Origin: Candidatus Thorarchaeota archaeon
Lineage (GTDB): Archaea > Asgardarchaeota > Thorarchaeia > Thorarchaeales > Thorarchaeaceae
Length of the DNA: 64,000 nt
Direction: 5' to 3'
Assembly (NCBI GenBank): GCA_004524445.1
Contig: SDNP01000008.1
Span: forward strand, 1-64,000
Part shown: piece by piece, positions 2,838 through 23,259 of the stretch
Layout of the letters: each line of letters begins with the position of its first letter
Position numbering within the stretch: position 1 is the first letter of the stretch
Program-made: the position numbers and the translations under genes
The notes under the pieces: model-generated
Databases searched by the model: none
What the model was told of the DNA's origin: nothing
What the model saw: the letters and a program-made list of their open reading frames with translations, nothing else

Positions 2838-4385
2838 CTACTCGGGGGGTAGCTGACCAAATATCGCGCTCATATCGACGCCTTTGGCCTTGTTCTTCAT
2901 ACCATAATAGGTATACATGAGTTGACCCCAGAAGTACAGACCTACTGTGAAGAGTGTCTCAAATTGGACACCCGCAGTGGGTACGAAACTTACGAGGGCG
3001 TAGAAGAACACGGCACCGCTGACTAATCCAGCAATCGATACTAGCGGTACGCCAGCAATCGTCCAAGCACCCGACCGCTCCCACAATGTTGGTCGATAGA
3101 AGGGCAGAGATATCTCGGCAAGCGAGAATTGCCATCGGATGAAGGTGTATGTGAAGGCAACACCGATAGCCACTGACACGTCGTAAAAGACGGCCATGCC
3201 AATGATGATTATCTGCACAATCAACCAGAAGTAGAGGGAATTGTGTGGTACATGATACTTGGGATGGATCTGAGCCATTGCCTCAGGACACAACCTGTCC
3301 ATTGCCATTGCGTGGAACGGTCGTGTAACCCAGAGTGCATTGCTTGGTCCGTCAAGGGTGTTAGCCAGAATTGGTTGTAGTACCAAAATTGCACCAAGCC
3401 AGGCAAAATTAGGACCGAGGGCAATCGCGGCAAAGTTACCAAAACCAGGGAATATGCCAGCAGTGCTGCTGTTATTCCAGTACAAGAGCTCGCCTAAGCT
3501 AACCTCAACTGCATAAGCTGACAGCATGAAGAGAGCTCCAATACCAATAACACCACCCATGGTGCTAAGGGGAATGTTCCTACTTGGCTGACTGACTTCA
3601 CCCGCGACGGGCATGATCAGGTATGGCCACATAATACCAACAGCGGTCACAAGGGCGCCTGCAACAGCAGCAAGATTGAGTGTGTTATATGCATTGATAT
3701 CTGCTATATATGACCCTGCAACCAGGTCCGCGTATGCGTGTCCAGTGCCTGCAAACAAATTATCCCAGACCGTGGGCGTAATCGGTGTTGCAATTAGAAT
3801 GATATCTGATATCAGCAAAAGCACCATCACGACAATTCCTAGTACTATTGTGAAGTAACCCAGTATCCTGACACTCAAATAGCTGAAAATAAAGCCTACA
3901 AAAGTCAGAATGAGGGCCAAAATCACTAGAACAATTATGTCGTTAGCTATGGCATTACCCAAATCCAGCAAGAGCTGGTTATCTGCAATGATGCCGATGG
4001 CCTGTAAACCGCCGCCGGTTATCTTAGCTGAGAAGAAGCTAGCTGAACCGCGGAATACTGGATTGGCAATCACTGACCGCCAACCCTCCATAACACCAAA
4101 AATCGGGGATAGACCTCGTCCGGTAAAGTGGTAACTAGCACCGCTTCGGGGCATCGCAAGCATGAGCACCATTGTGCCTACACCTTCGAATAGGATTGCG
4201 AATGTACCTATAGCAAAGGTTGGAACAAGAAGTGCACCTGGAAACCAAGTTGATACTTGTGGTGCTACAAAGTGGAAATACGGACCGACTGTTAGCGCTA
4301 TTGGCAAAATCAATGCGAACCAGGGTCCAACTTCCTTGACTAGTCCAGAACTTTCCCGGACAAAGAGGAGTTCTTCGTCTTCCAT
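2838..4385 (-). CDS. APC-family amino acid/polyamine permease
   Basis: LFVRESSGLVKE, AMPRSGASY, AGEVSQPSRNIP and HPKYHVP motifs; about 12 TM; C-terminal FGQLPPE typical of archaeal APC permeases; likely start ATG 4385. Confidence 0.85.
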   Translation of the reverse strand: MEDEELLFVRESSGLVKEVGPWFALILPIALTVGPYFHFVAPQVSTWFPGALLVPTFAIGTFAILFEGVGTMVLMLAMPRSGASYHFTGRGLSPIFGVMEGWRSVIANPVFRGSASFFSAKITGGGLQAIGIIADNQLLLDLGNAIANDIIVLVILALILTFVGFIFSYLSVRILGYFTIVLGIVVMVLLLISDIILIATPITPTVWDNLFAGTGHAYADLVAGSYIADINAYNTLNLAAVAGALVTAVGIMWPYLIMPVAGEVSQPSRNIPLSTMGGVIGIGALFMLSAYAVEVSLGELLYWNNSSTAGIFPGFGNFAAIALGPNFAWLGAILVLQPILANTLDGPSNALWVTRPFHAMAMDRLCPEAMAQIHPKYHVPHNSLYFWLIVQIIIIGMAVFYDVSVAIGVAFTYTFIRWQFSLAEISLPFYRPTLWERSGAWTIAGVPLVSIAGLVSGAVFFYALVSFVPTAGVQFETLFTVGLYFWGQLMYTYYGMKNKAKGVDMSAIFGQLPPE

Positions 4386-4593
4386 TTTTCGGGATTCTCC
4401 GTTCTTATTTTTTTCTCTCACGTTTGCGAATCATTCGCTCTCCGTGATACAGTGAACATGGCAATACCAGTATAAAAACTTAAGGAGAGAGTGAAATGAG
4501 GAGGTTTAACATGTTTAAATCGTGTGGTAGGAGACCTGCTGCATCGATGAGGATATTGTCGCCATAGATTACGACATAGACAGAACTATAGTG

Positions 4594-5928: not shown

Positions 5929-7125
5929 TCAGTCCTCGGGGATGTAATATGGGTCCAGAATCTCCTCATCAACGATTCCCGCTGACACAGCCATGAGCTC
6001 AGCTATGTCAAGCACTCTCATCTCAGCGTCAGCCTCGTAAACGGCATGGGTAAGATTCATTTCGCACGCTGGACAGACCGTCGCAATGATGGTAGCATCT
6101 GTGGTTTTTATATCCTCCAATCGTCTTCTAGCAGCCATCTGTGAATTATCCTCATACATTACCTTTACTCCGCCGCCACCGCCACAACAAAACGCCTGTT
6201 CTCTATTGCGTGGTACCTCGCGGAAATCAACACCGGGGATTGCCTCAATAACCTCACGGGGTGGTTCATAGATATCCCGATATCGTCCAATCTCGCAGGG
6301 ATCGTGATACGTAACAACGACATCAACTGGGTTTTTCAGGTCGATCTTACCTTCTCTCACAATCTCTGCCAGAACCTCACTTGTATGACGAACTTCTATT
6401 GGAAATTCATCCATTCCAAGTAACTCCGGATAAATCTCATCGAAAGCTCGGAAGCAACTCGGACATGGTGTGATGATTTCTTTCACGCCGCGAGCTTGCA
6501 GTTTTTTCAGATAATCCTCGGCCCATTCCTTTGCATGCTCCATTTTACCAGTGATCCAATATGGCGTTCCACAACATCGTTGTTCTTCGCCAAGGAAGTC
6601 GAGCTCATAGCCTGCTTCTTGAAGCACACGCACGAGAATATTGGTCTTTTCCTTGAAACGGTGACTTGCTAAACAGCCCGGATAAAACAAGGTTCCTGAT
6701 CCCTCCTTGAACTCAAGTCCTTCTGTCCATTGAGTGTGTGCAGTTGGTGTATCAGCGAAGATGTTTCCTGACTCTAGGGCGGTATCGGCCATATTCTTTC
6801 CGCCTTCAGGAATAGTCACTCCCTGCTCAACAAAGTCCTTCCTCATGGCTTTAGTAACTGCGATGATGTCTATTTGGGCAGCTTTCTTGCATTCGTACTT
6901 ACATCGACCACACATGAAGCAACCAAATATTCGCTCAGCAAGGTCTTCAGTATATTCTAATTTCCCCTCGAGTATTGCTCTGGCTATTGCCATCCTGCCC
7001 CTAGCTGTAGACGATTCCCACGTTTGTGTGTAAATTTCAGGGCACCTTTCATCAAAATCGTATCCACGACAAAACTCGCATCTACCACAGGCGTAAATCA
7101 TGTCCTTATAGTCGCTGATATTCAT
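5929..7125 (-). CDS. Fe-S oxidoreductase, GlcF/HdrD-like (2x4Fe-4S plus two CCG domains)
   Basis: CGRCEFC and CFMCGRC...C ferredoxin motifs; YPGC, CCG, CPSC, YHDPC, CCGGGGG and CPAC. Confidence 0.9.
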   Translation of the reverse strand: MNISDYKDMIYACGRCEFCRGYDFDERCPEIYTQTWESSTARGRMAIARAILEGKLEYTEDLAERIFGCFMCGRCKYECKKAAQIDIIAVTKAMRKDFVEQGVTIPEGGKNMADTALESGNIFADTPTAHTQWTEGLEFKEGSGTLFYPGCLASHRFKEKTNILVRVLQEAGYELDFLGEEQRCCGTPYWITGKMEHAKEWAEDYLKKLQARGVKEIITPCPSCFRAFDEIYPELLGMDEFPIEVRHTSEVLAEIVREGKIDLKNPVDVVVTYHDPCEIGRYRDIYEPPREVIEAIPGVDFREVPRNREQAFCCGGGGGVKVMYEDNSQMAARRRLEDIKTTDATIIATVCPACEMNLTHAVYEADAEMRVLDIAELMAVSAGIVDEEILDPYYIPED

Positions 7126-8501
7126 TGTAACTCCTCCTCTGAAATGAAAATTCCTCGTTGCAGAATGTTATTAGGGTCAAGTGTCTTTTTCAGAGTCTTC
7201 AGGAGGCGGTAATATCCAGTATCTCTCTCTGCCACGAATGGTCTCAAGCCATCTCTTCCACCGATGCCATATGGAACAACAGGCCCCTCGAGAACCATCT
7301 CGTTGATGTCATCAGCCATCTCAACGAGTTCGTCCCATTCCTCTGGCTCTTGATAGTTAGTGACCATAAATGCCAACCAATCTCTTGGTAGAACTTGGCC
7401 TCCAAATCCGGCCTTCGTATAGCCTCTCTTCTCAATAAGCTCTTGCTTCCAGATATTGTAAAGAAAGCCAATGTCATCAATTCTGCAGGACCCGGAACCA
7501 AAGAAATGCCAAACCCCAGCTGCAAAGATGTCTGTGAGTCCTGTGAGAATCCTATCAAAATAGTCATTTGCAGGAGCTGGGTCGCCAATTTCACCACCAA
7601 GATCTTCGATTTTAGCTATGAGTTTCTTCTTTCGCAGATCCATTATCTTCTTTTCATAGGCGAAAATGTCTGCCATCACAACAAATGTTTCAGGGGCTGT
7701 TGGCTCCACCCACAAATAGAAGCCCTGCAAATATTCATCTCCAACAAGCCGATTGACAAAGTGTCCTAATTCAATTACCTCATCAAGTGTTGGCATTACG
7801 GCCATAATCCGCTCCTCATAATCTGAAGACGGTCTGATTCGCAATGTTAGTTCTGTGCAGACTCCGAGGATACCCTCTGCCCCAATAAACATCCCAGCAA
7901 GATCTGGACCTAGACATTGTCTCTTGAACTTCCCAGCGCTTGGCCATGCCGCAGAGCCCGTATGAACTATATCTCCATTGGGAAGGACCATCTCAAGAGT
8001 GACGATATCACGATGTCCGTGGAAACCAAATTTGGCGGTGCCACGCGGCCCACCTCCAGCCTTCATAACAGACCCACCAATGGTCATAGCTGGACCCCCA
8101 GCCTCACTGCAGAGATAAGTCAATCCGATCTCTTGCAGCGCAGCATCCAGTTTTGCCCAAGTACAATTTGGCTGAACGGTGACAGTAAGGTCTCTCTCAT
8201 CAATTTCAATTATCTCGTTCATGAGTGCCAAATCGAGCATGATACCTGGCTCCTGAGCAAGAAATGCATCCCAATGCGACGTTCCACCACCCCTCAGATA
8301 AATTGGAACGTCATGTTCGTTGGCAATCTTGAGGATTTGCTGAATTTCCTCACTGGATTCCGGCATCACTATATGTGTAGCCATCTTCTGCTTTGCGGGG
8401 CTCAAATCACGGCTATATGCTACTATATCGAAATCCTTGTCTGTGACCCGTTTTTCCCCAACAATGTCTTCAAGAAGACCTGTTATTTTTTGGATATCCA
8501 T
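7122..8501 (-). CDS. FAD-linked oxidoreductase, GlcD/D-lactate dehydrogenase family
   Basis: RGGGTS, TIGG, GAEGILG and KKTLDPNNIL motifs; 4-nt overlap with the Fe-S partner; likely start 8501. Confidence 0.9.
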   Translation of the reverse strand: MDIQKITGLLEDIVGEKRVTDKDFDIVAYSRDLSPAKQKMATHIVMPESSEEIQQILKIANEHDVPIYLRGGGTSHWDAFLAQEPGIMLDLALMNEIIEIDERDLTVTVQPNCTWAKLDAALQEIGLTYLCSEAGGPAMTIGGSVMKAGGGPRGTAKFGFHGHRDIVTLEMVLPNGDIVHTGSAAWPSAGKFKRQCLGPDLAGMFIGAEGILGVCTELTLRIRPSSDYEERIMAVMPTLDEVIELGHFVNRLVGDEYLQGFYLWVEPTAPETFVVMADIFAYEKKIMDLRKKKLIAKIEDLGGEIGDPAPANDYFDRILTGLTDIFAAGVWHFFGSGSCRIDDIGFLYNIWKQELIEKRGYTKAGFGGQVLPRDWLAFMVTNYQEPEEWDELVEMADDINEMVLEGPVVPYGIGGRDGLRPFVAERDTGYYRLLKTLKKTLDPNNILQRGIFISEEELQ

Positions 8502-8661
8502 TATCAACCGCTTCTCCAGATGTATCCGTATTAAGTCCAAGACTGGCATAAATACTAATTAAGCTCTCTGGTTGCTCAAAGTCTTTAAAATAAGCTTAAC
8601 AAGAAGAGTGGAAATTCTCTGTAGTTTTGGGAAAAAAAGGTTGAGAGAGGAATGAACTCCT

Positions 8662-12070: not shown

Positions 12071-13198
12071 ATGAAACCAAGAGAGCGATTCCATAAGACT
12101 GTGTCCCACGAGGAACCCGATAGAGTACCTCTTGACCTCTGGATTACACCACAAGCCTATGAAAGCCTAAGAGACTATTTGGGGATTGATGCGCCAGAAA
12201 CCCAAGAATGGGGCATAATGAGTGTCTGGCAAATTTCTGAAGAGATGCTACAGAGACTCAATATTGATTTTAGGCGGGTATACATGAAACCCGCCGCAGA
12301 CTTCAAGGCAAAGGAATACCCTGATGGAAGTGTTGAAACCGAGTTCGGTTGTAGAGGGAAGTGGATTGGGAAGTACTGGGAGATAGTGCATTTTCCGTGG
12401 GCGGATTTCACCGAAGTAGAAGAAGTGGAGGAGTACGAATGGCTGGATCCAGAAGATCCTTCGCGACTAGATGGTGTTGTAGAGTGGGCCAGACATCTTC
12501 ATGAAGAAGCGCATTATGCAGTTGTCGGAATGGTTGGGGGCCCTTGGGGAGTATTCGAGGTTTGTGCGCATTACATGAGAGGTTTTGATAAATTCCTCAT
12601 GGACCTCATAGCTCGACCCAAATTAGCTGAAGCCATGATGAATAAATCAATGGAGTTGGCTCTAGACATGAACGCTGTCTTTCTGGATGCAGTGGGAGAT
12701 TACTTGGATATTGTGCAAGTAGGAGATGACTTGGGTCATCAAAACGGATTGATAATGAGTCCCAAGATGTATCGCGATATGGTTAAACCGAAACACAAGA
12801 AAATTTACTCGGATATTCACAGGAGAGCCCCTCATGTCAAGATTCTCTATCACACTTGCGGAGCCATCGAGCCAATGGTAGAGGATTTGATTGACGTAGA
12901 GGTTGACATTCTGAATCCTGTTCAGCCACTGGCAAAAGGGATGGACTCCAACAAATTAAAACAGAAATACGGAGACCGACTGACTTTTCATGGGGGAATC
13001 GATTTGCAACAAGCAATGTCATCTGCTGGTACAATCACCGATCTCAGGGACGAAATTGACACTAGATTGCAGGCATTCGCACCGGGTGGAGGCTACATTT
13101 TAGCCCCAGCCCATAACATACAGCCAGATTCGACTCCTGAGAAGATACTGGAAATGTATGATTATGCAGCTAAGAAAGGGCGGTATCCAATCCGTTAG
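12071..13198 (+). CDS. UroD-family protein, probable corrinoid-dependent methyltransferase
   Basis: EEPDRVP, GDDLG, YHTCG, LNPVQ, FHGGID and GGGYILAPAHNIQ motifs. Confidence 0.85.
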   Translation: MKPRERFHKTVSHEEPDRVPLDLWITPQAYESLRDYLGIDAPETQEWGIMSVWQISEEMLQRLNIDFRRVYMKPAADFKAKEYPDGSVETEFGCRGKWIGKYWEIVHFPWADFTEVEEVEEYEWLDPEDPSRLDGVVEWARHLHEEAHYAVVGMVGGPWGVFEVCAHYMRGFDKFLMDLIARPKLAEAMMNKSMELALDMNAVFLDAVGDYLDIVQVGDDLGHQNGLIMSPKMYRDMVKPKHKKIYSDIHRRAPHVKILYHTCGAIEPMVEDLIDVEVDILNPVQPLAKGMDSNKLKQKYGDRLTFHGGIDLQQAMSSAGTITDLRDEIDTRLQAFAPGGGYILAPAHNIQPDSTPEKILEMYDYAAKKGRYPIR

Positions 13199-13866
13199 GG
13201 GATTGGCTTCTCTTTATGCATTTCATGAGGGTCCTCTCCCTCATCCAACTTATCGGCCCACCATACGTCAGTAGATACTACTTCCTCTGCCGCTGTGAGA
13301 ACATCTTCAATGCGGGACTTTGGAATAACGACAACTCCATCACCATCAGCGAAGATCAAGTCGCCCACCTCAACTCTGAGACCACCACAAGTGATTGGCT
13401 CATCAACGGATTGCATATCTAAGCGACCTCTCATTGTTCCGGGATGACGTCCACGAGCAAACACTGGAAAATTCATTTTGTCAATATCATTAATATCTCT
13501 GGAAGTACCGTCTACAACTGCTCCGGTCAGCCCTTTTGGAATGCCAATTCTCGTTAGAACCTGTCCCCAAACAGAGCAATCGGTTGCGCCACTTGAATTG
13601 ATGCATGCTATATCCCCTTCCTTCGCCTTGGTGGCCAAGCTCATGAATAAGTCCAATTGCCCCTCGTCATACGGACTATTTGGAGGGGTACGCACAAGTT
13701 TTCCAGTTCTTGCAAACCCAGCCATTCGATATTTCTTTGTTAAGGGCTTAATTCCCCGATCCATACAGACTGGGCTTATCCCCACTTCGTCGGCGGCATC
13801 GGATACCGCAGCTACATAAAGCTTCAGAGTTCTCTCTATTGTCTGCAGTTTGTTTGCCATGGTCAA
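13195..13866 (-). CDS. RraA-like / 4-hydroxy-4-methyl-2-oxoglutarate aldolase family protein
   Basis: AVSDA, WGQVL, GAVVDGTSRD, FPVFARG and GDLIFADGDGVVVIP motifs. Confidence 0.9.
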   Translation of the reverse strand: MTMANKLQTIERTLKLYVAAVSDAADEVGISPVCMDRGIKPLTKKYRMAGFARTGKLVRTPPNSPYDEGQLDLFMSLATKAKEGDIACINSSGATDCSVWGQVLTRIGIPKGLTGAVVDGTSRDINDIDKMNFPVFARGRHPGTMRGRLDMQSVDEPITCGGLRVEVGDLIFADGDGVVVIPKSRIEDVLTAAEEVVSTDVWWADKLDEGEDPHEMHKEKPIP

Positions 13867-13870
13867 TCAC

Positions 13871-14350
13871 TCATTTTTTCCAAAGATAAATACAATAGTC
13901 ATCGCCACGCATCATGCACTTTGGAATTGACAATCTCAAATCCGAATCAACTGCCCGACCTATTCCATCATCCATAGCACATACCCAATGACAGATGTCT
14001 TCTTGTGCTCCTTCCGCTTTGAATGTATCAATCCAAGGACACGAATGAACCTTGATTTCAGCGGTATCATCACCAGAGTCAATCAATTCTAATTCAAATC
14101 CAAAATATGGGTGAGCCCCCTCAAAAAATTCGAAAATAGATTCTGGATCTCCTTCTCTTAGTGCGCCACTCTCAATTCCAGCTTTACCCAGTTCCAGGCC
14201 ATGCTTGATATTTGCTTGTCTTAGTGCCTCCAATCCCTCTTCCCCGCAATGTTCTCTCATCGCTTCCACATAGACAGCATGCGCGCTGGCTAGTGTTTCC
14301 ATATTCGTTTTCCTGACTTCATCTGCTGTTGGACCAGTCATATTGCTCAC
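13871..14350 (-). CDS. V4R-like / ATC-hydrolase-family small ligand-binding protein
   Basis: VHSCPW...ICHWVCAMD...KCMMRGDDYC cysteine pattern. Confidence 0.7.
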   Translation of the reverse strand: MSNMTGPTADEVRKTNMETLASAHAVYVEAMREHCGEEGLEALRQANIKHGLELGKAGIESGALREGDPESIFEFFEGAHPYFGFELELIDSGDDTAEIKVHSCPWIDTFKAEGAQEDICHWVCAMDDGIGRAVDSDLRLSIPKCMMRGDDYCIYLWKK

Positions 14351-14465
14351 CTAATCGACCGACACATTTTCTTAAATTAGTTTAGGATGATAACGTGTCA
14401 GAAGTTAAAGTATTCTTTGGTCGTTTGATAGAGTATTTATGTTGGATTAAGTTTTAGGAAAACCA

Positions 14466-15647
14466 GTGGTGCATGCTATGCTAGCGGAAAGAAACCAATT
14501 TGTTCCAGCCAGTGAAATACGAAGAATCTACAACATGATTCTCGGACGAGATGACGTTATTGACCTGACAGTGGGAATCCCAGATTTTGATACACCACAG
14601 CATATCAAACAAGCAGCAAAGCAGGCAATTGATGATGGTTTTACTAAATATACCCACAATGCAGGTTTCATAGATGTACGTCAAGTGTTCGCTGATAAGC
14701 TGAAGCGAGATAATGGTATTGATGCAGATCCTGTTAGCGAGATTATGGCCACCGCCGGCGGCATGGGTGCACTCGTCCTTGCGAACCTTGTTCTTGTTGA
14801 GCCGGGAGATGAAGTAATATATCCAGATCCGGGATTCGTCAGTCATTATGCCCATGTGAAGTTGGCGGAAGGCAAAGCGATTCCACTTCAACTAAAGAAG
14901 GAAAACGGCTTTGGGGTAACTGCTGAGGGGGTTAGCAAGCTGGTCACGGACAAGACCAAGATGTTGGTCTTGAACTCTCCCAACAATCCAACAGGCGGAG
15001 TCATCTCCAATGAAGAACTCAAGAAGATTGCGGAACTCGCAATTGAGAAGGACTTCTATATTCTCTCAGATGAGGCTTATGAAAAATTCCGCTACGATAA
15101 TGAGAAACCACTATTCATCGGTTCCTTGCCGGGAATGAAAGAACGAGTAGTATCTCTCTTCTCTTTGTCTAAGTCATATGCTATGACAGGCTGGCGAATT
15201 GGCATTTGCACGGGACCGTCTGAGGTTATTGGTGCAATGACAAAACTGCAAGAACATGTCATTGCGATGCCAACCTCGATTTCCCAAAAAGCAGCAGCGG
15301 CAGCTGTCGAGGGGTCACAGGATTGTGTCAAGGAAATGCTGGATACCTTCAAAGAAAGACGAGATATTATGGTGAAGGGCCTACAGCAAATTGAGGGGGT
15401 CGACTTACAGCCTCCCGGCGGAGCGTTTTATGTATTTCCAGATGTTTCAGCATTTGGAATGGAGACCTTTGAATTGGTTATGAGAATACTCAATGAAGTT
15501 AATGTTGCAACAGTTCATGGTTCTGCATTCGGACATTTTGGTGAAGGATTCCTGAGACTATGTTATGCAATGTCAACTGAGAGCATTGAAAAGGCACTAC
15601 AAAGGCTTGATACTTTCCTACCGAAGCTCCTAAGAAAATCGAAGTGA
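14466..15647 (+). CDS. class I/II PLP aminotransferase (AspAT-like)
   Basis: GIPDFDTP, NSPNNPTG, SDEAY and SLSKSYAMTGWRIG motifs. Confidence 0.93.
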   Translation: MVHAMLAERNQFVPASEIRRIYNMILGRDDVIDLTVGIPDFDTPQHIKQAAKQAIDDGFTKYTHNAGFIDVRQVFADKLKRDNGIDADPVSEIMATAGGMGALVLANLVLVEPGDEVIYPDPGFVSHYAHVKLAEGKAIPLQLKKENGFGVTAEGVSKLVTDKTKMLVLNSPNNPTGGVISNEELKKIAELAIEKDFYILSDEAYEKFRYDNEKPLFIGSLPGMKERVVSLFSLSKSYAMTGWRIGICTGPSEVIGAMTKLQEHVIAMPTSISQKAAAAAVEGSQDCVKEMLDTFKERRDIMVKGLQQIEGVDLQPPGGAFYVFPDVSAFGMETFELVMRILNEVNVATVHGSAFGHFGEGFLRLCYAMSTESIEKALQRLDTFLPKLLRKSK

Positions 15648-15689
15648 TGGATGCAAAAAATAATCTACTTAGAGGTGTATTGTAACAAG

Positions 15690-18035
15690 ATGACCTCCAG
15701 AACGCAACGAATCAAGGATAGGATGCTTGCTGCAGAGCCTACTATATCAAGCGAAAGAGCTTCAATTTTCACTAACTACTTGATATCTCATGAATCTAGA
15801 CCAATGAAAATTCGATTGGCCAATGCATTCGCCGAGGTTCTAGATCAGATGACCATTCGAATAGAGCCAGAGGAATTAATTGTTGGAAATATGGGCCCTA
15901 CTCCCCGTTCTTGTCAAATATTCCCAGAGTATAGCTGGGAATGGATAAACGAGGAGCTCGATAGATTCGATGCGCGTAGAACAGAACCATTTCAGATAGC
16001 TGAAGGTGATAAAGAAATTCTCAGAGAGGTCTTCGAATATTGGAATGAAAAAAGTACGGCAGAAATCGCTCGTAACAAAATGCCAATGGATGCTCAGAGG
16101 GCCTCCAAGGCCGGATTATTCACGATTGGTGCACCAGGGACTGGAATCGGGCATGTTATCGTGGATTATCCCACAGTCCTCAGAGAAGGCATCGCGAATA
16201 TTGCATCTGATATAAGAAACAAGCTGAAGGATTCGACCTCTAAAGAGAAGAGAGAATTCTATGAAGCAGTAATAATTGAGTTGGAGGCGGTAATTGCATT
16301 TGCGAACAGGTTTTCCAAGCTTGCTGCCAATCTTGCAGATGAGGAATCCGACCAACAAAGAAAGGCGGAATTGATTGAAATCTCACAAATATGTGCAAAA
16401 GTTCCTGAACATCCTGCAGAATCATTTCACGAGGCACTTCAGTCATTTTGGTTTGTGCATCTGCTTGTGCAGACCGAATCAAACGGTCATTCGATATCCA
16501 CCGGTCGCTTTGATCAGTATATGTTTTCATATTTTCAGCAGGATATGAAGTCAGGTAAGATCACTAGAAACCAAGCACTCGAACTTCTAGAAATGCTATG
16601 GATCAAGTTGACCTCTCTAATCAAGCTAAGAAATGAGTACTACAGTGTGGCTTTCGCAGGTCATCCCATGTTTCAGAATTTGACTATTGGGGGACAAGAT
16701 GCCGAAGGTAATGATGCCTGTAATGACTTGACCAGTCTCGTTTTGGAGGCGACGAAGAATATACGAGTCACGCAACCTACGGTTTCATTCAGATGGCATG
16801 AGGGTACACCTGACAGCTACATGAGGGAGGTTGTCGAGGTTGTTTCTAAGGGCTTGGGGATGCCAGGTATCTTCAATGATGAAATCATAATTCCTCTGAT
16901 GATCGATAAAGGGACAGACCCTTCTGAGGCTTATGATTACTCAATCCTCGGGTGCGTGGAGCCAATAATTGCTGGCAAATCGGATCCTCGACCAAACATT
17001 GGTTATGTCAATTTGCCCAAGATCCTAGAGATAACTCTCAATAATGGAACTGACCCGATGCGTAGCGAGAAAGTGGGACTAGAAACCGGTGACATCACAA
17101 GATTCACTTCCTTTGAGCAGCTGTGGAATGCCTACGAAAAGCAAATCGATTATGCTATTGAACTGCTGACAAAGGCAGACCACGTTGCAGCAGGAATTCT
17201 TTCTAAAAACAAACCTACGCCGTTCATTTCATGCCTATTAGAGGGCTGTCTGGAAACCGGCAAGACAATGCAAGAAGGTGGAGCGGTCTACAATTCTGGT
17301 GGCATCATGGGTGTTGGGGTTGCAATAGTTGCTGATTCACTTGAGATGATTAGAAAGCATGTTTTTGAACAAAATACCATCACGATGGATAATCTGTTGG
17401 AGGCATTACATGCTGACTATGAGGGTTACGAAGAACTGAGAGTCCTTCTTGATAATGACCCATCAAAATATGGGAATGATATTGCAAGAGTAGATTTTCT
17501 TGCTCGAGATACAGGTGTAGCATTCTGTGATGCAATCCAGAGTCGCATGACAACACGTGATGGGCCATATCATGGTGCACTGTTTTCAGTTTCTATGTAT
17601 ATTCCTCAAGGAGAGGTCCTAGGAGCTACTCCGGATGGCAGAAAGGCAGGTATCATGCTTTCTGATGGTGTTTCACCAACTCAGAATCGAGATGTTAATG
17701 GACCCACTGCTGCTATGAAATCAGTTGCTCGATTGGATCATCAACGCTGCTATAATGGAACTCTGTATAATATGAAATTTACTCCAGAGATGTTCAGCAG
17801 CAACAACTCAAGAAGCAAATTCATTGGCCTTGTTGAAGGATATTTCAAAATGAATGGATTACATGTCCAGTTCAATGTTGTAGATAAGGCAACATTAGAG
17901 GATGCGAAGATACACCCTCTACAACACCGTAATCTCATAGTTCGAGTGGCAGGCTATAGCGCATATTTCATTGAACTGGACCCCTTCGTGCAAGATGAGA
18001 TAATCGCTCGAACGGAATTTTCCTCTACACACTAA
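15690..18035 (+). CDS. glycyl radical enzyme, non-PFL (PFL2/dehydratase-like)
   Basis: GCVEP cysteine loop; C-terminal RVAGYSAYF glycyl-radical motif; ESNGHSIS; QNLTIGG; GAGGTG RBS before ATG 15690. Confidence 0.93.
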   Translation: MTSRTQRIKDRMLAAEPTISSERASIFTNYLISHESRPMKIRLANAFAEVLDQMTIRIEPEELIVGNMGPTPRSCQIFPEYSWEWINEELDRFDARRTEPFQIAEGDKEILREVFEYWNEKSTAEIARNKMPMDAQRASKAGLFTIGAPGTGIGHVIVDYPTVLREGIANIASDIRNKLKDSTSKEKREFYEAVIIELEAVIAFANRFSKLAANLADEESDQQRKAELIEISQICAKVPEHPAESFHEALQSFWFVHLLVQTESNGHSISTGRFDQYMFSYFQQDMKSGKITRNQALELLEMLWIKLTSLIKLRNEYYSVAFAGHPMFQNLTIGGQDAEGNDACNDLTSLVLEATKNIRVTQPTVSFRWHEGTPDSYMREVVEVVSKGLGMPGIFNDEIIIPLMIDKGTDPSEAYDYSILGCVEPIIAGKSDPRPNIGYVNLPKILEITLNNGTDPMRSEKVGLETGDITRFTSFEQLWNAYEKQIDYAIELLTKADHVAAGILSKNKPTPFISCLLEGCLETGKTMQEGGAVYNSGGIMGVGVAIVADSLEMIRKHVFEQNTITMDNLLEALHADYEGYEELRVLLDNDPSKYGNDIARVDFLARDTGVAFCDAIQSRMTTRDGPYHGALFSVSMYIPQGEVLGATPDGRKAGIMLSDGVSPTQNRDVNGPTAAMKSVARLDHQRCYNGTLYNMKFTPEMFSSNNSRSKFIGLVEGYFKMNGLHVQFNVVDKATLEDAKIHPLQHRNLIVRVAGYSAYFIELDPFVQDEIIARTEFSSTH

Positions 18036-18124
18036 CCCAACATGGAGCTTACGACAAGTTTAACATTCAGAACTCCAATATTAAATTCAACTTAAATCCA
18101 TGAGAGAAAATGAGAGTGTGAAAT

Positions 18125-19120
18125 ATGAGTTACGACGTTGTTACTTTTGGGGAGGTCATGCTAAGGCTTTCTCCACCCGATTTCAAACGATTTGAACAGA
18201 CACACAGTTATGATGCACATGCAGGTGGAGCTGAGATGAACGTTGCAGTGGCCTGTTCCCGATTAGGATTAAGTTCTGCATACGTCACTAAATTGGGTGA
18301 TAATTCAATTGGGCATTTCATTAGAAATCAGGCACGAATGCATGATGTGGATACTTCTCACATCCTTTGGGACCCGGATAGTCGATGCGGAGTTTATTTC
18401 GTGGAGTTTGGTGCTGCACCTCGAACAAATCGCGTAATCTATGATAGGGCACATTCAGCAATTAGCAAGATCAAACCTGGAGAGGTACATTGGGATGATA
18501 TCCTTGATGGGACAAAACTGTTCCATACAAGCGGAATAACTCCTGCTCTCAGCAAGGGTTGTGCAGATACCACTATGGAGGTATTCAAAGCAGCCAGAAA
18601 ACACGACGTCAAGGTATCTTATGACGTCAATTATAGAGGTAAGCTTTGGACTCCAGAAGAGGCAAGAAAATTCACTGAACCGGCATCAGAATACATTGAC
18701 ATCCTCATTACCACTGAAGAGGATACCAAAGTTGTTTACGGAATCGAAGGTGAAAACTACGAGGAAGTAGCTGCCAAACTGACTGACAAGTTTGGCTTCG
18801 AAGTAGTCCTGATCACCCTTCGCGAGACGCCATCTGTTCTCGAGAATAAGTGGTCCGTCTTTGCTTATGCAGATGGAGCGGTCTATCGGAGTCCGAAATA
18901 TGATATTGAAGTCATAGATCGTCTTGGCGGTGGCGACTCATGCAGTGCCGGTTTTATCTATGGCTATTTGGAGCTTGGAGACCTGCAGCAAGCAGTTAAC
19001 TTTGGCTCAGCCTTCTCAGCATTCAAACAGACAATACCCGGAGACCTTGCATTCGTAAACAAAGAAGAAATCAAGAAACTAGTTGAAGGCTATGAGAGAG
19101 GGCTCAGAATTCAGAGGTAG
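18125..19120 (+). CDS. kdgK: 2-keto-3-deoxygluconate kinase (PfkB family)
   Basis: VTFGEVMLRLSPP, GGAEMNVA, YDRAHSA, YDVNYRGKLW and DRLGGGDS motifs; adjacent to eda. Confidence 0.85.
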   Translation: MSYDVVTFGEVMLRLSPPDFKRFEQTHSYDAHAGGAEMNVAVACSRLGLSSAYVTKLGDNSIGHFIRNQARMHDVDTSHILWDPDSRCGVYFVEFGAAPRTNRVIYDRAHSAISKIKPGEVHWDDILDGTKLFHTSGITPALSKGCADTTMEVFKAARKHDVKVSYDVNYRGKLWTPEEARKFTEPASEYIDILITTEEDTKVVYGIEGENYEEVAAKLTDKFGFEVVLITLRETPSVLENKWSVFAYADGAVYRSPKYDIEVIDRLGGGDSCSAGFIYGYLELGDLQQAVNFGSAFSAFKQTIPGDLAFVNKEEIKKLVEGYERGLRIQR

Positions 19121-19131
19121 GTGCAGAAGAG

Positions 19132-19782
19132 ATGTGGAATAAACAGGAAGCAATGAATCTGATAGAAGAAACCGCTCTCATTCCTATTATTAGAGTGGAC
19201 TCGAGTGAAACTGCCTTACAAGTTGCAGATGCTTTTCTAGAAGGCGGCGTGTCAATAATCGAAGTAACTTTCAGTGTCCCTGGTGCGGTTGATGTTGTCA
19301 GTGAGCTGTCTGAAAAACTGGGTGATAAAGTACTGATTGGTACAGGAACAGTATTGGATGGTGCAACTGCCCGTCAAGCCATTCTAGCTGGAAGCGAGTT
19401 CATTGTCAGTCCAATTTACTCACGTGATTTGATAGAAACTGCTCGAAGATACTCAAAACCCGTCTTTCCCGGAGCGGTGACTCCAACAGAGATTCTTGAA
19501 GCCTATACTATGGGAGCAGATGCGGTCAAGGTATTCCCATGCGGTAATCTGGGAGGCGCTTCCTATATCAAAGCTGTCAAGGCACCTCTTCCTCAAGTAC
19601 CTGTAATCCCGACTGGAGGAGTTAACATTGACACGGCAGGACCATTATTAGATGCGGGGTCGTTTGCATTAGGTGTTGGGAGTGCAATTACAGATAAGAA
19701 AGCTATTGCAGCCGGCAACTTTGGCAAGATAACTGAAAATGTGAAGGCATTCCTGTCTGTCATTGCTGAACACAAGAAGTAA
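19132..19782 (+). CDS. eda: KDPG/KHG aldolase
   Basis: IEVTF, GTGTVLD, FIVSP, PGAVTPTEI, VKVFP and PTGGV motifs. Confidence 0.92.
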   Translation: MWNKQEAMNLIEETALIPIIRVDSSETALQVADAFLEGGVSIIEVTFSVPGAVDVVSELSEKLGDKVLIGTGTVLDGATARQAILAGSEFIVSPIYSRDLIETARRYSKPVFPGAVTPTEILEAYTMGADAVKVFPCGNLGGASYIKAVKAPLPQVPVIPTGGVNIDTAGPLLDAGSFALGVGSAITDKKAIAAGNFGKITENVKAFLSVIAEHKK

Positions 19783-19783
19783 T

Positions 19784-19827
19784 CCCGTAACTGCGAACGG
19801 GTAGTGCAGGAGTAGAACGCTCCTGCA
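19784..19827. terminator. double hairpin between convergent genes
   Basis: CCCGT-AACTGCGA-ACGGG and TGCAGGAG-TAGAACG-CTCCTGCA. Confidence 0.55.
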
Positions 19828-21456
19828 TTATTTTCCTTCTTTGGCGTCGAGCTCGACTAGTTCGGGTATCAAGCGTGTGCATATCGCGAATAGAGAATTG
19901 AAATCCTCAGCACTCGCTAATTCGATATAATTGGCCGTTTCCGCTATATTTTCTATTCGTTTTCTTTCTTCTGAAGATACCAGGATTCGTTTTGCACCTG
20001 CCCCAGCTGCATTTCCTACTGGTATTACTCTATTGGCGCTTACTGGCGGTAATAGACCAATGCTGAGGGCACTCTCAGGTCGCATGTAATTTCCAAATGC
20101 GCCTGCTAGAAACACGGCATCAATATTAGATGATTTTAGCCCAGCTTTCGAAAGGAGTATTTCTGTTCCTGCTCGGATTGCAGCTTTTGCCAGTTGGACC
20201 TGTCGTACATCGTTCTGAGTCAAAATAATCTCCCTCCGGGCGTTTCTTTCGCCTAGATCGGCCACTCGATATACGCGTCCATGCTTGGGATGTTCTTCTA
20301 CTCGTGGCCCTTCATGAATACGCCCTGTATCATCAATCTGACCTATACTCCGCAATTCAGCAACAATATCTAGGACTCCAGAACCACATATCCCCTCAGG
20401 GGATACATTGCCGATTACGCCAAGATCAGGAGTGCTTTGTGCATCCCTAATATTTGCATATTCTATAGCTCCTTTCTGTGCTCGCATTCCATCCTTGATC
20501 CTTGCACCTTCAAATGCAGGCCCGGCTGCCGCCGAACAGCAGAATATCTCACCATGCTTTGAAAGAATCATCTCGCCATTTGTGCCAACATCTATACCCA
20601 AGGAAACACCCGAATAGTCCTCCATTCGTCGGGATAACATGAACGCAAGCGCATCACCTCCAACAAAGCCTGCTACAACAGGAGAGAAATATATAGATAC
20701 ATTAAGAAATCGAGTCAATCCGATTTCAGTGCCCCTGACTAACGTTGATTCCTTCTTATGGGGAGTGTAAGGCGCCATGGCAAGCGGTTGGACTTCATAG
20801 CCAAGTGCAAAATGTTGCATTGCCGTATTTCCAACGACAGATCCAGCCGTGATATTTCGGGGGTCAATGCCCTTCTCATCAAGAAAGGAATCAATAAGTT
20901 CTTCCACTTTACTCCAAATCTGTTCTTGCAATTCAGTTGAGCCTTCTGGATTCTCGATGGCATAGCTTAGGCGACTCATTACATCCTCGCCATGGACGAT
21001 TTGTGGGTTAATTGCACTCTTTTGACCAAGCTGTATGCCTGTGCCCATATTCATGAAGTAGCATACTATAGTTGTAGTACCGATGTCTATAGCCACACCT
21101 ACGTCATTTGTATCACCCAAATCAGCAACCAAACGTTCAGACATAAGAGAATCCGTGAGAATTTGTGCACCCATGTCTTGACTAGGAATTCCTACTCGTT
21201 TGGCATTTCCAACCTGATGCTGACATGCTAGTCGCGTTCCATCCCTAATTTCAGATATACTAAGCTGCTCCAAATCAGCAGTGCTCGGGTCGGGTATGGG
21301 CTTCACTACAACTTTACATTTGCCACAGGTTCCACGTCCTCCGCAGTCCGAGGGCACATAGTGACCAGCTTCTCGAATTGCATCCAATATGGTTTGACTG
21401 GTATCGACAACTATTCTTATACCCGAAGGCTCTAGGATTAGTTCCGTGTCAACCAA
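19828..21456 (-). CDS. ATP-dependent reductive activator of corrinoid proteins (RACo/RACE, ASKHA with N-terminal 2Fe-2S)
   Basis: CGGRGTCGKC...RLACQ; DIGTTT, DVGTNGE, AAGPAFEG, GICGSG and LAGAFG motifs. Confidence 0.92.
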   Translation of the reverse strand: MVDTELILEPSGIRIVVDTSQTILDAIREAGHYVPSDCGGRGTCGKCKVVVKPIPDPSTADLEQLSISEIRDGTRLACQHQVGNAKRVGIPSQDMGAQILTDSLMSERLVADLGDTNDVGVAIDIGTTTIVCYFMNMGTGIQLGQKSAINPQIVHGEDVMSRLSYAIENPEGSTELQEQIWSKVEELIDSFLDEKGIDPRNITAGSVVGNTAMQHFALGYEVQPLAMAPYTPHKKESTLVRGTEIGLTRFLNVSIYFSPVVAGFVGGDALAFMLSRRMEDYSGVSLGIDVGTNGEMILSKHGEIFCCSAAAGPAFEGARIKDGMRAQKGAIEYANIRDAQSTPDLGVIGNVSPEGICGSGVLDIVAELRSIGQIDDTGRIHEGPRVEEHPKHGRVYRVADLGERNARREIILTQNDVRQVQLAKAAIRAGTEILLSKAGLKSSNIDAVFLAGAFGNYMRPESALSIGLLPPVSANRVIPVGNAAGAGAKRILVSSEERKRIENIAETANYIELASAEDFNSLFAICTRLIPELVELDAKEGK

Positions 21457-21505
21457 TGATATCTCTCTCCCAATATCCAGACAGTCTTAACACTGATTGC
21501 TCCAT

Positions 21506-22516
21506 CTAGATAAATACTGTTTCAACAAGGGAAGCCAAGTTTTCCGTAGGTGTTTCTATGGGACAATCACATCCGCTGCTCAGGATATATCCGCCGCCCT
21601 TTGCAGCGTTTCTTACGCAGTTCAATGCTGCTTCTCTAACCTGGTCAGCATCACCCTTCAGAAGGAGTGTTGTATCTACATTACCAATAAGAGCAGAGTT
21701 GTTTTCTGCAATTTTCTTGGCAGCCTCCAAGTCCACTGCAGAATCTATGCTCAGAGCGTCGGCATTTGTATCCGTCATTGCTTGAATTATTCTATTAGTA
21801 TCTCCACAAATATGCAGTGTCGCGTATGCACCTTCAGAATGGATAATGTCATTCATGTTTTTTAGATGTGGGGCTGAAAACCTCTTGAAATATCTAGGAG
21901 ATATTATGCTATTGCTTGCACTAGGTTCCAACACTGCTATATTATGTGAGCCTGTAGCAAGTAGCTCTCTCAGGTAGGGCTCCAATATTTTTACACAGCT
22001 TTCAACCGCGTTATCTACCCCATCTGGGTTTTCGAATGTTTCCGTCAAGAGCTTCTCTACACCCAACAAATGCCCAGCTAGAGTGAATGGTCCAATAATG
22101 TAACTACTCACAAGGTGTGTACTGCCAATGTCAGAATAGAGCTTCTTGCTGCTTTCAACAAACACTCCTAATCTTGTATTGGAGATCGGGGGCAGTTCTA
22201 AACTATTCAGATCATCTGTTGAATCATAAGGATGTTTCTTTACATATGGAAATGTTTGATTCTCAAATATGACCTCGGCCCCAAGTACTTCAGCCTCGAC
22301 AGTCAAATCCATGACATTGAAAACCCCATCATATCCATGTTTCTCTCGAGCCTTGAGCAAGGCTTGGCTTTGTTTTGAAGGGTCATGCAACATTTCAGAG
22401 AGTGATACGTTTCCTATCTTTGAAGCAAATAGACCAACCAGAGGTAGGACTGGAAGTCTCTCCGGTTCCTCAAATGCAAGGGCTTTACGAATTAATTCCA
22501 GTGATGTAGATGTCAT
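21506..22516 (-). CDS. MtaA/MtbA-like methylcobamide methyltransferase (UroD fold)
   Basis: DLTVEAEVLG, GPFTLA, Zn motif LHICG...SSGC. Confidence 0.88.
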   Translation of the reverse strand: MTSTSLELIRKALAFEEPERLPVLPLVGLFASKIGNVSLSEMLHDPSKQSQALLKAREKHGYDGVFNVMDLTVEAEVLGAEVIFENQTFPYVKKHPYDSTDDLNSLELPPISNTRLGVFVESSKKLYSDIGSTHLVSSYIIGPFTLAGHLLGVEKLLTETFENPDGVDNAVESCVKILEPYLRELLATGSHNIAVLEPSASNSIISPRYFKRFSAPHLKNMNDIIHSEGAYATLHICGDTNRIIQAMTDTNADALSIDSAVDLEAAKKIAENNSALIGNVDTTLLLKGDADQVREAALNCVRNAAKGGGYILSSGCDCPIETPTENLASLVETVFI

Positions 22517-22623
22517 TGCGTTATCCTTACCAAACCGAGCACTTTATTATTGGTTTAATTTGGCTTTAATACCGGCAGCAAGTGGACACCTGATAAAGGT
22601 GCGCATTAAGAGGAACATGGACA

Positions 22624-23259
22624 ATGGCAGCTGAAGCGGACATGCATGGACTAATCGAGGCAATTGTAGAGGGAAACAGGGAGGCAACTACTATAGAGGC
22701 TGAAAAGGCATTAGAATCGGGAATTCCCCCCTTTAGCATTGTGATTGATGGCTGTAGCAAGGCCATGTCAGAGGTTGGTGACCTATATCAAAATGGTGAA
22801 TATTTCATTCCTGAGATGCTGATGTCAGCAAAGGCATTTGAGGCTGCAATGGCCGTTATTAAACCTAAATTAAAGGATGCGGATATTGATGCGAAGGGCA
22901 CTATTGTTATCGGAACATGCAAGGGGGATATTCATTCTCTCGGAAAGAATCTGGTAGCATCTATGCTTGATGCCGCAGGGTTCAATGTTATAGATCTGGG
23001 AGAAGACGTACCACTGGAGAATTTCGGTGACACAGCTCTGAAGCAAGAAGCAGACATAGTTGCAGTTTCTGCTCTCATGACTACCTCTATGGATTCCATG
23101 AAGAAGGTAATCGAAGATATCCATGAAAGAAAAATCCCTGTGAAGACTCTGGTCGGCGGTGGCCCAATCACTCCAGAGTTTGCTGATTCCATAAGAGCAG
23201 ATGGATACGCAAAAGATGCCCAAGATGCCGTACGAATCGCGGCTATCCTGGCAAAATAA
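22624..23259 (+). CDS. corrinoid (B12-binding) protein, MtaC/MttC-like
   Basis: Cap domain EYFIPE; GDIHSLGKNLV (DxHxxG); SALMTTSM; VGGGP. Confidence 0.93.
   Translation: MAAEADMHGLIEAIVEGNREATTIEAEKALESGIPPFSIVIDGCSKAMSEVGDLYQNGEYFIPEMLMSAKAFEAAMAVIKPKLKDADIDAKGTIVIGTCKGDIHSLGKNLVASMLDAAGFNVIDLGEDVPLENFGDTALKQEADIVAVSALMTTSMDSMKKVIEDIHERKIPVKTLVGGGPITPEFADSIRADGYAKDAQDAVRIAAILAK

Follow-up and report, generated by a model that had tools for sequence, protein, structure and literature searches.

In the semi-phosphorylative Entner-Doudoroff branch, as represented by the 2-keto-3-deoxygluconate (KDG) kinase TM0067 (KdgK) and the aldolase TM0066 (KdgA) of Thermotoga maritima and by the archaeal KDG kinases, a PfkB kinase is followed by an Eda-type aldolase. 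Glycyl radical enzymes (GREs), which are sensitive to oxygen, are represented by the B12-independent glycerol dehydratase of Clostridium butyricum (DhaB1, PDB 1r8w) and the propanediol dehydratase of Roseburia (5i2a), and Escherichia coli PflD/YbiW (8yjo, 8id7) exemplifies the concept of a GRE eliminase feeding an aldolase in carbohydrate-type catabolism, by sugar-phosphate cleavage. Four-component corrinoid systems include MtaABC with RamA, the O-demethylases of bacteria and archaea such as Mto and Odm, and, for quaternary amines, systems of the MtgB or MtpB type with MtqC and MtqA. Here we analyse a window of 64,000 nucleotides (positions 1 to 64,000 of contig SDNP01000008.1) from a Thorarchaeota-type Asgard archaeon, whose genome is a 2.79-Mb metagenome-assembled genome (MAG) that is 90% complete. 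This Asgard lineage is uncultured and close to the origin of eukaryotes, and its physiology has been inferred almost wholly from genes. In the window, an operon for an aminotransferase (AT), a GRE, a KdgK-like kinase and Eda is bracketed by a corrinoid system, composed of the divergent URO-D protein UROD1, a corrinoid protein (CorP), an MtaA-like methylcorrinoid methyltransferase (MT2) and the reductive activase RACo (Table 1). This gene set, which is kept by one Asgard family, is probably an undescribed anaerobic breakdown route.

Gene families were assigned with Pfam and NCBIfam profile models. The best PDB matches of the GRE are the glycerol dehydratase 1r8w (692 bits) and the propanediol dehydratase 5i2a (678 bits), and it retains the catalytic signatures GCVEP, GIGH and NGHS. 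The glycyl radical motif, RVxG[YF], is found as RVAGYS at residues 765-770 and in 119 of 120 orthologues, and the GCVEP loop (434-438), aligned to Cys433/Glu435 of 1r8w, has the Cys-x-Glu arrangement and not the Cys-Cys pair of pyruvate formate-lyase. The residues equivalent to Cys433/Glu435, His164 and His281-Ser282 of 1r8w are, respectively, Cys435/Glu437, His168 and His280-Ser281; in motif tallies across the orthologues, all of them, as well as Gly768, were invariant. The substrate pocket differs, with Arg447-Pro/Gln-Asn449 in place of Trp445-His446-Asp447, and Phe341, Phe645 and Val647 in place of Tyr339, Tyr640 and Ser642; the glycerol/propanediol pocket, as judged from 1r8w positions 339, 445-447, 640 and 642, is not present, and the replacing residues Arg447, Asn449, Phe341, Phe645 and Val647 are invariant or nearly so among the orthologues. 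The GRE passes the model of the PFL2/glycerol-dehydratase (1,2-eliminase) subfamily (TIGR01774; Table 1). Scores against the HypD, CutC, HpsG/HpfG, PflD, indoleacetate decarboxylase and 4-hydroxyphenylacetate decarboxylase equivalogs (347-618 bits) stay under the NCBIfam cut-offs of 1000-1150. From its sequence, the GRE is predicted to combine the catalytic apparatus of radical diol dehydratases with a pocket of its own, and it fits no characterized class.

Asgard GREs have been assigned to alkylsuccinate or benzylsuccinate synthases (Ass/Bss) in work on Hermodarchaeota, on the basis of 29-33% identity and a single active-site Cys (PMC8163825). One orthologue of the window GRE also carries the public MAG-record label 'benzylsuccinate synthase alpha subunit', which would make it an enzyme for anaerobic hydrocarbon activation. 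We argue against this label because of the diol-dehydratase catalytic set with its own pocket, including an eliminase Glu two residues past the Cys and the His and NGHS motifs. Additionally, the solved X-succinate synthases score low against the GRE (TutD, 4pkc, 313 bits; MasD, 9o8u, 290 bits; compared with 692 for glycerol dehydratase), and its neighbours are kinase, aldolase and aminotransferase genes, not beta-oxidation genes or genes for the small Bss subunits, for which no search was made. A succinate synthase is, in our opinion, extremely unlikely, and the current annotation would be corrected in that at least this clade of Asgard GREs appears to consist of eliminases and not of hydrocarbon-activating succinate synthases, an assignment that bears on claims of alkane and aromatic degradation by these archaea.

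The GRE is lineage-restricted, because its orthologues fell into a single, isolated 50% cluster when 1.84 billion cluster representatives were searched exhaustively, with the next relative only 41-43% identical; this search retrieved no bacterial relative with an informative gene context above 43% identity. Homologues at 66-89% identity come, without exception, from MAGs labelled Thor-, Hermod-, Odin- or Promethearchaeota, and in our genome collection the orthologues are confined to one family (f1), with every other Asgard GRE showing at most 41% identity. The true start of the protein is probably Met14 (position 15690), because the orthologues have 770-781 aa and the same-genus copy contains stops, presumably in the extra leading codons. 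We assume that the enzyme would be activated in trans, since the sole GRE activase of the genome (TIGR02494, 311 bits against a cut-off of 174) lies outside the window, on contig C52, adjoining a second GRE. This second GRE (G000, L002:1039-3444, plus strand; activase at L002:3441-4421, plus strand) has 801 aa, scores under all equivalog cut-offs and is 35% identical to the window GRE. GREs with about 35-41% identity to the window GRE, probably representing this paralogue, occur widely in the Asgard phylum and are uncharacterized as well.

The kinase encoded after the GRE has T. maritima KdgK as its best PDB match (2afb, 281 bits), and Eda scores above the cut-off of the KDPG/KHG aldolase family model (Table 1); both genes are single-copy in the genome. 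We did not find any match to IlvD/Edd (PF00920), MR_MLE (PF13378), UxuA (PF03786) or UxaA/GarD (PF04295) in the whole 90%-complete genome, which is thus without an identifiable Entner-Doudoroff dehydratase of the IlvD/Edd type or of the enolase superfamily. Likewise, UxaC and the UxuB-type Mannitol_dh_C domain (the C-domain of mannonate/altronate oxidoreductases) were not found in the genus. Among five near-complete relatives bearing the cluster, none contains UxuA or UxaA/GarD and one contains IlvD/Edd, the other four being without it; their MR_MLE matches, one genome aside, are weak and correspond to frames of about 440 aa that resemble enolase. Because the searches for dehydratases, uronate isomerase and oxidoreductase in this genome and genus were all negative, we regard kinase and Eda as a KDG-type pair without a conventional supplier.

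A first-pass annotation of this DNA had listed ten contiguous genes, from UROD1 to CorP, with those for AT, GRE, KdgK and Eda co-oriented and separated by short gaps, and had noted that the window holds no canonical dehydratase to supply a 2-keto-3-deoxy acid. All ten open reading frames (ORFs) are present, the successive gaps in the co-oriented run measure 3, 89 and 11 nt, and the lack of a canonical dehydratase extends from the window to the genome; the only correction is that the protein labelled V4R-like belongs to the ATC_hydrolase family (PF14196). That annotation had also named, among the findings that would refute it, a GRE of a characterized class with an unrelated substrate together with a canonical dehydratase as supplier of KDG; our analyses instead point to an eliminase-type GRE outside the characterized classes, and no canonical dehydratase was found in the genome.

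The GRE is most similar to glycerol and propanediol dehydratases, and its substrate could be, instead of the precursor of the kinase substrate, a small diol, for which glycerate, glycerol and 1,2-propanediol are candidates, or an amino-alcohol, such as one remaining from a demethylated quaternary amine, with KdgK and Eda serving another step. The pocket can be read in this direction, because Asp447 of glycerol dehydratase, a residue of its substrate pocket, is replaced by Asn449, with Arg447 nearby, and this would suit a carboxylate or phosphate in the place of glycerol's third hydroxyl; also, quaternary-amine (MTTB) modules and permeases of the APC (amino acid/organocation) family are linked to the cluster. 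Nevertheless, the residues typical of propanediol and glycerol pockets are not retained, KdgK and Eda would be left without a substrate source in a genome that is devoid of the usual upstream enzymes, and the genes for GRE, kinase and aldolase look co-transcribed, with GRE and Eda being lost together. We therefore judge a small-diol substrate to be rather improbable.

UROD1 is only 18% identical to the adjoining MtaA-like protein, and among the family models it matches at the Pfam level alone. Its AlphaFold2 model (predicted local distance difference test, pLDDT, 89.8) is closest to MtaA from M. mazei (4ay7), followed by UroD and MetE. Its His261-x-Cys263 aligns with the zinc motif of MtaA and His348 stands for the third Cys; His348-Asn349 is invariant. 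As for the other components, the MtaA-like protein contains a His-x-Cys motif at 235 and a downstream Cys; CorP, one of three corrinoid proteins in the genome, has the DxHxxG motif of corrinoid proteins as DIHSLG at residue 102; and RACo shows the 2Fe-2S cysteines (38, 44, 47 and 78) of a reductive activase. A complex model of UROD1 with the CorP of the window reached an ipSAE of 0.78, compared with 0.00 for the best of three controls, with runs agreeing in at least 86% of contacts and a partner pLDDT of at least 80; as a calibration, scores at this ipSAE mark were obtained for 58 of 80 solved complexes and for two of 110 mismatched pairs, counts that are only rough because our own alignments were used.

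Genomic context points in the same direction. UROD1 homologues of 54% and 43% identity from other lineages directly abut genes for B12-binding proteins and, in one of these loci, the homologue occupies the place of MTTB in an otherwise homologous permease-corrinoid module. In genome G321, the genes for CorP (-), MtaA (+), RACo (+) and UROD1 (-) form a compact four-gene unit, on a contig other than that of the GRE. As the first-pass annotation had proposed, the UroD-type gene therefore belongs with the corrinoid system, and from sequence and structural modelling we conclude that UROD1 is its putative substrate-side methyltransferase (MT1), with which the window would hold the whole four-part system. 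An alternative would be a non-catabolic UROD1, that is, a zinc-dependent methylcorrinoid:thiol methyltransferase, such as a core-MetE-like methionine synthase, merely neighbouring the GRE operon. Its fold, common to MtaA and MetE, its putative His/Cys/His metal site, the model-supported binding to a corrinoid protein and the existence of stand-alone copies are all compatible with such an enzyme; however, about one in four family genomes, some of them more than 95% complete, has no UROD1, and UROD1 co-varies with an accessory catabolic cluster and, in the related module, stands in for the MTTB substrate methyltransferase beside the permease. We consider this alternative very unlikely.

The position of the corrinoid genes varies among genomes. 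The trio RACo-MtaA-CorP comes directly after Eda only in the window and in the same-genus genome G386; in genus g9, Eda directly abuts Trx. The trio adjoins UROD1 in G321 and G324, of two other genera, being placed in G324 between UROD1 and the FAD enzyme, and the RACo homologues flanking UROD1 in these two genomes show 43-45% identity. At least 14 genomes, belonging to six genera, have corrinoid protein genes at a distance of 2-9.4 kb from UROD1, in at least five layouts; each of these genomes, of about 3 Mb, contains no more than one to six genes of this type. The map of 24 orthologous loci described below, with the trio in a single genus, first suggested that the trio was unrelated to the cluster, an idea that we dropped after locating the corrinoid genes across whole genomes and mapping more loci, which revealed their repeated re-association with UROD1. 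We conclude that UROD1 stays with the GRE operon and that the shared parts (corrinoid protein, MT2 and activase) move about the genome. Regarding the fate of the methyl group, there are three MtrH homologues in the genome, one adjoining the third corrinoid protein, and no match to acetyl-CoA synthase (PF03598) was found at its completeness of 90%; because of this, we do not claim that methyl groups enter the Wood-Ljungdahl pathway.

Contig C53 of this genome carries an additional MTTB-corrinoid-APC permease module, which is present in 22 of 86 family genomes, all of them with the cluster, and adjoins it in about ten. It is part of a conserved module of eight genes (L053, G000:C53:36000-55458), coding for an MtaA-like protein, a Zn-dependent alcohol dehydrogenase (Tdh/IolM-like), an unknown 259-aa protein, a metallophosphoesterase, an unknown 218-aa protein, an APC permease, a corrinoid protein and a non-pyrrolysine MTTB homologue, which is probably a quaternary-amine demethylation system. 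Another locus (L040:324-13595) contains two pairs of B12-binding protein and URO-D methyltransferase genes beside a CUT1 sugar ABC (ATP-binding cassette) transporter, a GH57/GH38 glycosidase and two alcohol dehydrogenases, which hints at the corrinoid-dependent demethylation of methylated sugars. Furthermore, a 10.6-kb metagenome contig contains two UROD1-family genes (39-44% identity, same motifs) together with a sugar ABC transporter, a GRE and its activase; this GRE is 27% identical to that of the window and does not have the eliminase Glu or the GxGH His.

To evaluate the conservation of the cluster, we mapped its orthologous regions, each of about 20 kb, at 24 loci from about ten genera. 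Among these loci, the gene order UROD1 (+), RraA (-), ATC_hydrolase (-), AT (+), GRE (+), PfkB (+), Eda (+) recurs, with variable flanks; the GRE is next to the AT in 22 of them and to the KdgK-like kinase in 23. Upstream, the usual order in the mapped loci is permease (-), CCG (-), FAD enzyme (-), and downstream there is either an SCP2/GlcDEF-like/Ino1 block or Trx-EamA with the genes that come after it. In a tally of gain and loss in 86 family genomes, which covered GRE, UROD1, Eda and the APC permease, these were present in about 59, 63, 61 and 51 genomes, respectively. The same approximately 20 genomes are without all four genes, several of these genomes being 93-98% complete, and in G315 only the GRE is left, with three stops. 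APC permease, UROD1, GRE and Eda are thus gained and lost together across the family, and the permease (orthologues 58-85% identical) does not appear in any cluster-less genome.

The frequent presence of the Ino1 gene downstream of the cluster provided a control for synteny. Its orthologue was found in 82 of the 86 genomes, including cluster-less ones, so that its adjacency reflects inherited synteny and is not evidence of function. Its position downstream of Eda in many genera had led us to consider a cyclitol (methyl-inositol) as substrate, an idea that is undercut by this distribution and by the location of Ino1 on another contig in the present genome, and that we keep as a weak lead. Throughout the family, genomes contain two inositol-3-phosphate-synthase-like genes, about 42% identical to each other (in this genome, G000 C7:49259-50323 and C19:10608-11687), one of which is syntenic with the GlcDEF-like/SCP2 block. 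A separate family of GREs of about 740 aa (L056:160-9387, L057:4629-20238 and L058:253-10490), without the eliminase Glu and His in the L056 copy that we checked, recurs with an activase, one or two Inos-1-P_synth-like genes, a PfkB kinase and a sugar ABC transporter and, once, with two UROD1-family genes; these neighbourhoods, which had also contributed to the cyclitol idea, may represent a bacterial radical route for cyclitols or sugars.

Table 1. Genes in and around the GRE-corrinoid cluster in the window, with their supporting profile matches
Feature	Coordinates	Strand	Evidence
APC-family permease	2838..4421	-	Pfam AA_permease 49 bits
CCG-domain/Fe-S electron-transfer subunit (GlcF/HdrD/GlpC-like)	5929..7125	-	Pfam CCG x2 + Fer4_8; NCBIfam TfrB/LdhH-like below cut-offs
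FAD_binding_4 (VAO/GlcD-type) dehydrogenase, CCG partner	7122..8549	-	FAD_binding_4 104 bits, N-terminal part only; GlcD 120 bits vs cut-off 568
LVIVD-repeat protein, 994 aa	8969-11953	+	
UROD1, divergent URO-D; proposed substrate:corrinoid methyltransferase (MT1)	12071..13198	+	Pfam URO-D 111 bits
RraA-like (HMG/CHA-aldolase or oxaloacetate-decarboxylase family)	13195..13866	-	Pfam RraA-like 108 bits
ATC_hydrolase-family small protein	13871..14350	-	Pfam PF14196, 67 bits
Class I/II aminotransferase (AT; archaeal aspartate/aromatic type)	14466..15647	+	Pfam Aminotran_1_2 256 bits
GRE, predicted diol-dehydratase-type 1,2-eliminase	15651..18035	+	PFL-like + Gly_radical (111 bits); TIGR01774 738.3 vs cut-off 678.2
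PfkB kinase, 2-keto-3-deoxygluconate kinase type (KdgK-like)	18125..19120	+	Pfam PfkB 141 bits
KDPG/KHG (Eda-type) class I aldolase	19132..19782	+	Pfam Aldolase PF01081 156 bits; TIGR01182 188 vs cut-off 156
RACo-type reductive activase of corrinoid proteins	19828..21456	-	Pfam Fer2, Raco_middle, RACo_C_ter
MtaA-like methylcorrinoid methyltransferase (MT2)	21506..22516	-	Pfam URO-D 225 bits; TIGR01463 187 vs cut-off 235
Corrinoid protein (CorP)	22624..23259	+	B12-binding_2 (PF02607) + B12-binding (PF02310); TIGR02370 199 vs cut-off 215
ORF, 478 aa	24844-26280	+	no significant Pfam family
ORF, 316 aa	26168-27118	+	no significant Pfam family

We also characterized the remaining genes in and around the cluster (Table 1). 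The best PDB matches of the AT are the Pyrococcus aromatic and aspartate aminotransferases 1dju and 1gd9 (321 bits). The RraA-like gene is single-copy in the genome and lies between UROD1 and AT in most loci; the best PDB matches of its product are the uncharacterized 3k4i and the 4-carboxy-4-hydroxy-2-oxoadipate (CHA) aldolase 3noj (55 bits). For the ATC_hydrolase-like protein, sequence searches did not retrieve any PDB relative and its Atlas neighbours are ATC_hydrolase clusters only; in the rearranged loci L016, L042, L043, L045 and L046 its gene moves with the MTTB/UROD1 methyltransferase genes. The APC permease gene is upstream of the cluster in L014, L023-L025, L027 and L035, and the permease is the probable importer of the substrate. 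In most orthologous loci the CCG/Fe-S gene adjoins UROD1, and the FAD_binding_4 gene is divergent from UROD1 with a spacer of 140-580 nt in relatives, for instance 579 nt in the same-genus G386 and 142 nt in G328. The insertion of the LVIVD-repeat gene between these two genes is exclusive to this genome. The two conserved ORFs at the end of Table 1, whose frames overlap by about 110 nt as called, come after Trx-EamA in several genera.

In our preferred reading, these genes would be joined in a single pathway for one compound, which would be imported, demethylated, transaminated, subjected to elimination by the GRE, phosphorylated and cleaved by the aldolase, and to which we assign a probability that approaches, without reaching, an even chance. 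The APC permease would import a methylated, amine-bearing hydroxy-acid, whose methyl group UROD1 would shift to the Co(I) of the corrinoid protein; the MtaA-like enzyme would hand the methyl on, and RACo would re-reduce oxidized cobalt. The AT would then turn the 2-amino group into a 2-oxo group, and the GRE, activated in trans, would remove the vicinal hydroxyl (or methoxy) by radical 1,2-elimination to yield a KDG-like 2-keto-3-deoxy acid. Finally, KdgK would phosphorylate this acid and Eda would cleave it to pyruvate and a triose phosphate. We infer the substrate identity, the order of the steps, the GRE reaction, the role of the AT and the methyl acceptor. More doubtful, and only tentatively advanced, is the stricter version in which a GRE eliminase replaces the sugar-acid dehydratase in a radical Entner-Doudoroff-type route that is mechanistically coupled to the corrinoid system, one compound yielding pyruvate, triose phosphate and a C1 unit. 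Here, either the methyl of an O- or N-methylated amino/hydroxy acid would be stripped first, or a hydroxy-methoxy pair would lose methanol through the GRE itself, with subsequent capture of the methanol by the corrinoid system.

Several observations weigh against a single pathway. The kinase is under the NCBIfam equivalog cut-offs, with 313 bits against 440 for the KDG/2-keto-3-deoxygalactonate kinase and 381 against 700 for the KHG/KDPG aldolase-kinase fusion, and with lower scores for other equivalogs, and the window contains no GRE activase. Most genomes have no corrinoid gene within 9 kb of the cluster, CorP orthologues also occur in the cluster-less genomes G383 and G384, and UROD1 is separable from the GRE, as in G321, with stand-alone second UROD1 copies, whose gene neighbourhood is uninformative. 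All the orthologous clusters come from one family, and their shared order and block loss can be the result of descent and of single deletions. From the chemical side, we know of no single compound that fits methyl transfer, class I transamination, diol-type elimination and a KDG-type product and, to our knowledge, UroD-fold MT1 enzymes act on aryl methyl ethers, methyl sulfides and chloromethane, not on sugar ethers or N-methyl groups.

The chief rival explanation is that the cluster holds two independent pathways that happen to be passed on and lost together as an island. One of them, formed by GRE, KdgK and Eda, would be a radical route for an unmethylated aldonate, for which a diol-type GRE followed by KdgK and Eda is chemically complete, or for another vicinal-diol acid. 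For their part, UROD1 and the corrinoid proteins, with the AT and the RraA-like protein, would take a methylated amino acid, for example converting N-methyl-aspartate to aspartate, oxaloacetate and pyruvate; this agrees with the aspartate and aromatic aminotransferases being the nearest solved relatives of the AT, and with the kinship of RraA-like enzymes to CHA aldolase/oxaloacetate decarboxylase. Genome rearrangements also separate the two sets, with UROD1, CorP, MtaA and RACo together and without the GRE in G321, and with the AT keeping to UROD1 and not to the GRE in G382; besides, the MTTB/corrinoid module is optional, being in 22 of about 60 cluster genomes. On the other hand, AT and GRE are co-oriented and 3-50 nt apart in nearly all loci, UROD1 keeps beside the GRE operon despite many rearrangements of the flanks, the co-varying importer is an APC permease and not a typical sugar-acid carrier, and we did not identify any aldose- or aldonate-forming enzyme. 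Two pathways in one island are, for us, unlikely, to a degree only slightly greater than the radical Entner-Doudoroff-type version above.

The interpretation given in the first-pass annotation, of a methylated and/or aminated compound that is demethylated, transaminated and radically dehydrated to a KDG-like intermediate, is thus supported in part. Its expectation that the genes are co-conserved is borne out by the 24 loci and by the joint loss of GRE, UROD1, Eda and permease, and the type of GRE, the gap in KDG supply and the tie of UROD1 with corrinoid genes, which recurs near the cluster, also agree with it; the position of the trio after Eda, exclusive to this genus, and the V4R label do not, the corrinoid genes of most cluster-bearing genomes being located elsewhere. 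The dissection of the corrinoid side, the co-variation of the permease, the Ino1 control and the independent neighbourhood with UROD1-family and GRE genes are new in this analysis.

If the GRE does make a 2-keto-3-deoxy acid, this would be a new GRE reaction class and a new entry into KDG/KDPG metabolism. The operon-tied putative corrinoid methyltransferase, in turn, points to an unrecognized methylated substrate in anoxic sediments, and the pairs UROD1 with the corrinoid protein and GRE with the activase can be tested directly.

Comparison with the described systems delimits what is particular to this locus. With E. coli PflD/YbiW the GRE shows sequence relatedness (487-500 bits), but scores 586 against a cut-off of 1109 in the corresponding model, and pocket, lineage and aldolase (Eda instead of Fsa) are different. 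The glycerol dehydratase DhaB1 and the Roseburia propanediol dehydratase have the same fold and align over their full length, and share the glycyl radical motif, the GCVEP Cys-x-Glu loop, the GxGH histidine and NGHS; unlike with them, the pocket of the window GRE is different, there are no adjacent activase, microcompartment or aldehyde-handling genes, and the enzyme is encoded in an archaeal aminotransferase-kinase-aldolase operon. With respect to the four-component corrinoid systems, the window has all four part types, with UROD1 as the MT1 candidate, but here the set wraps a GRE-kinase-aldolase operon. We did not encounter this pairing in the literature that we searched, where no paper connected GREs to KDG, to KdgK or to a corrinoid system, or related corrinoid enzymes to methylated sugars. 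Lastly, the PfkB kinase and Eda-type aldolase are as in the semi-phosphorylative Entner-Doudoroff branch, whereas the gluconate, mannonate or altronate dehydratase and the uronate isomerase/reductase were not found in the genome, and the GRE gene sits where the dehydratase gene would be expected.

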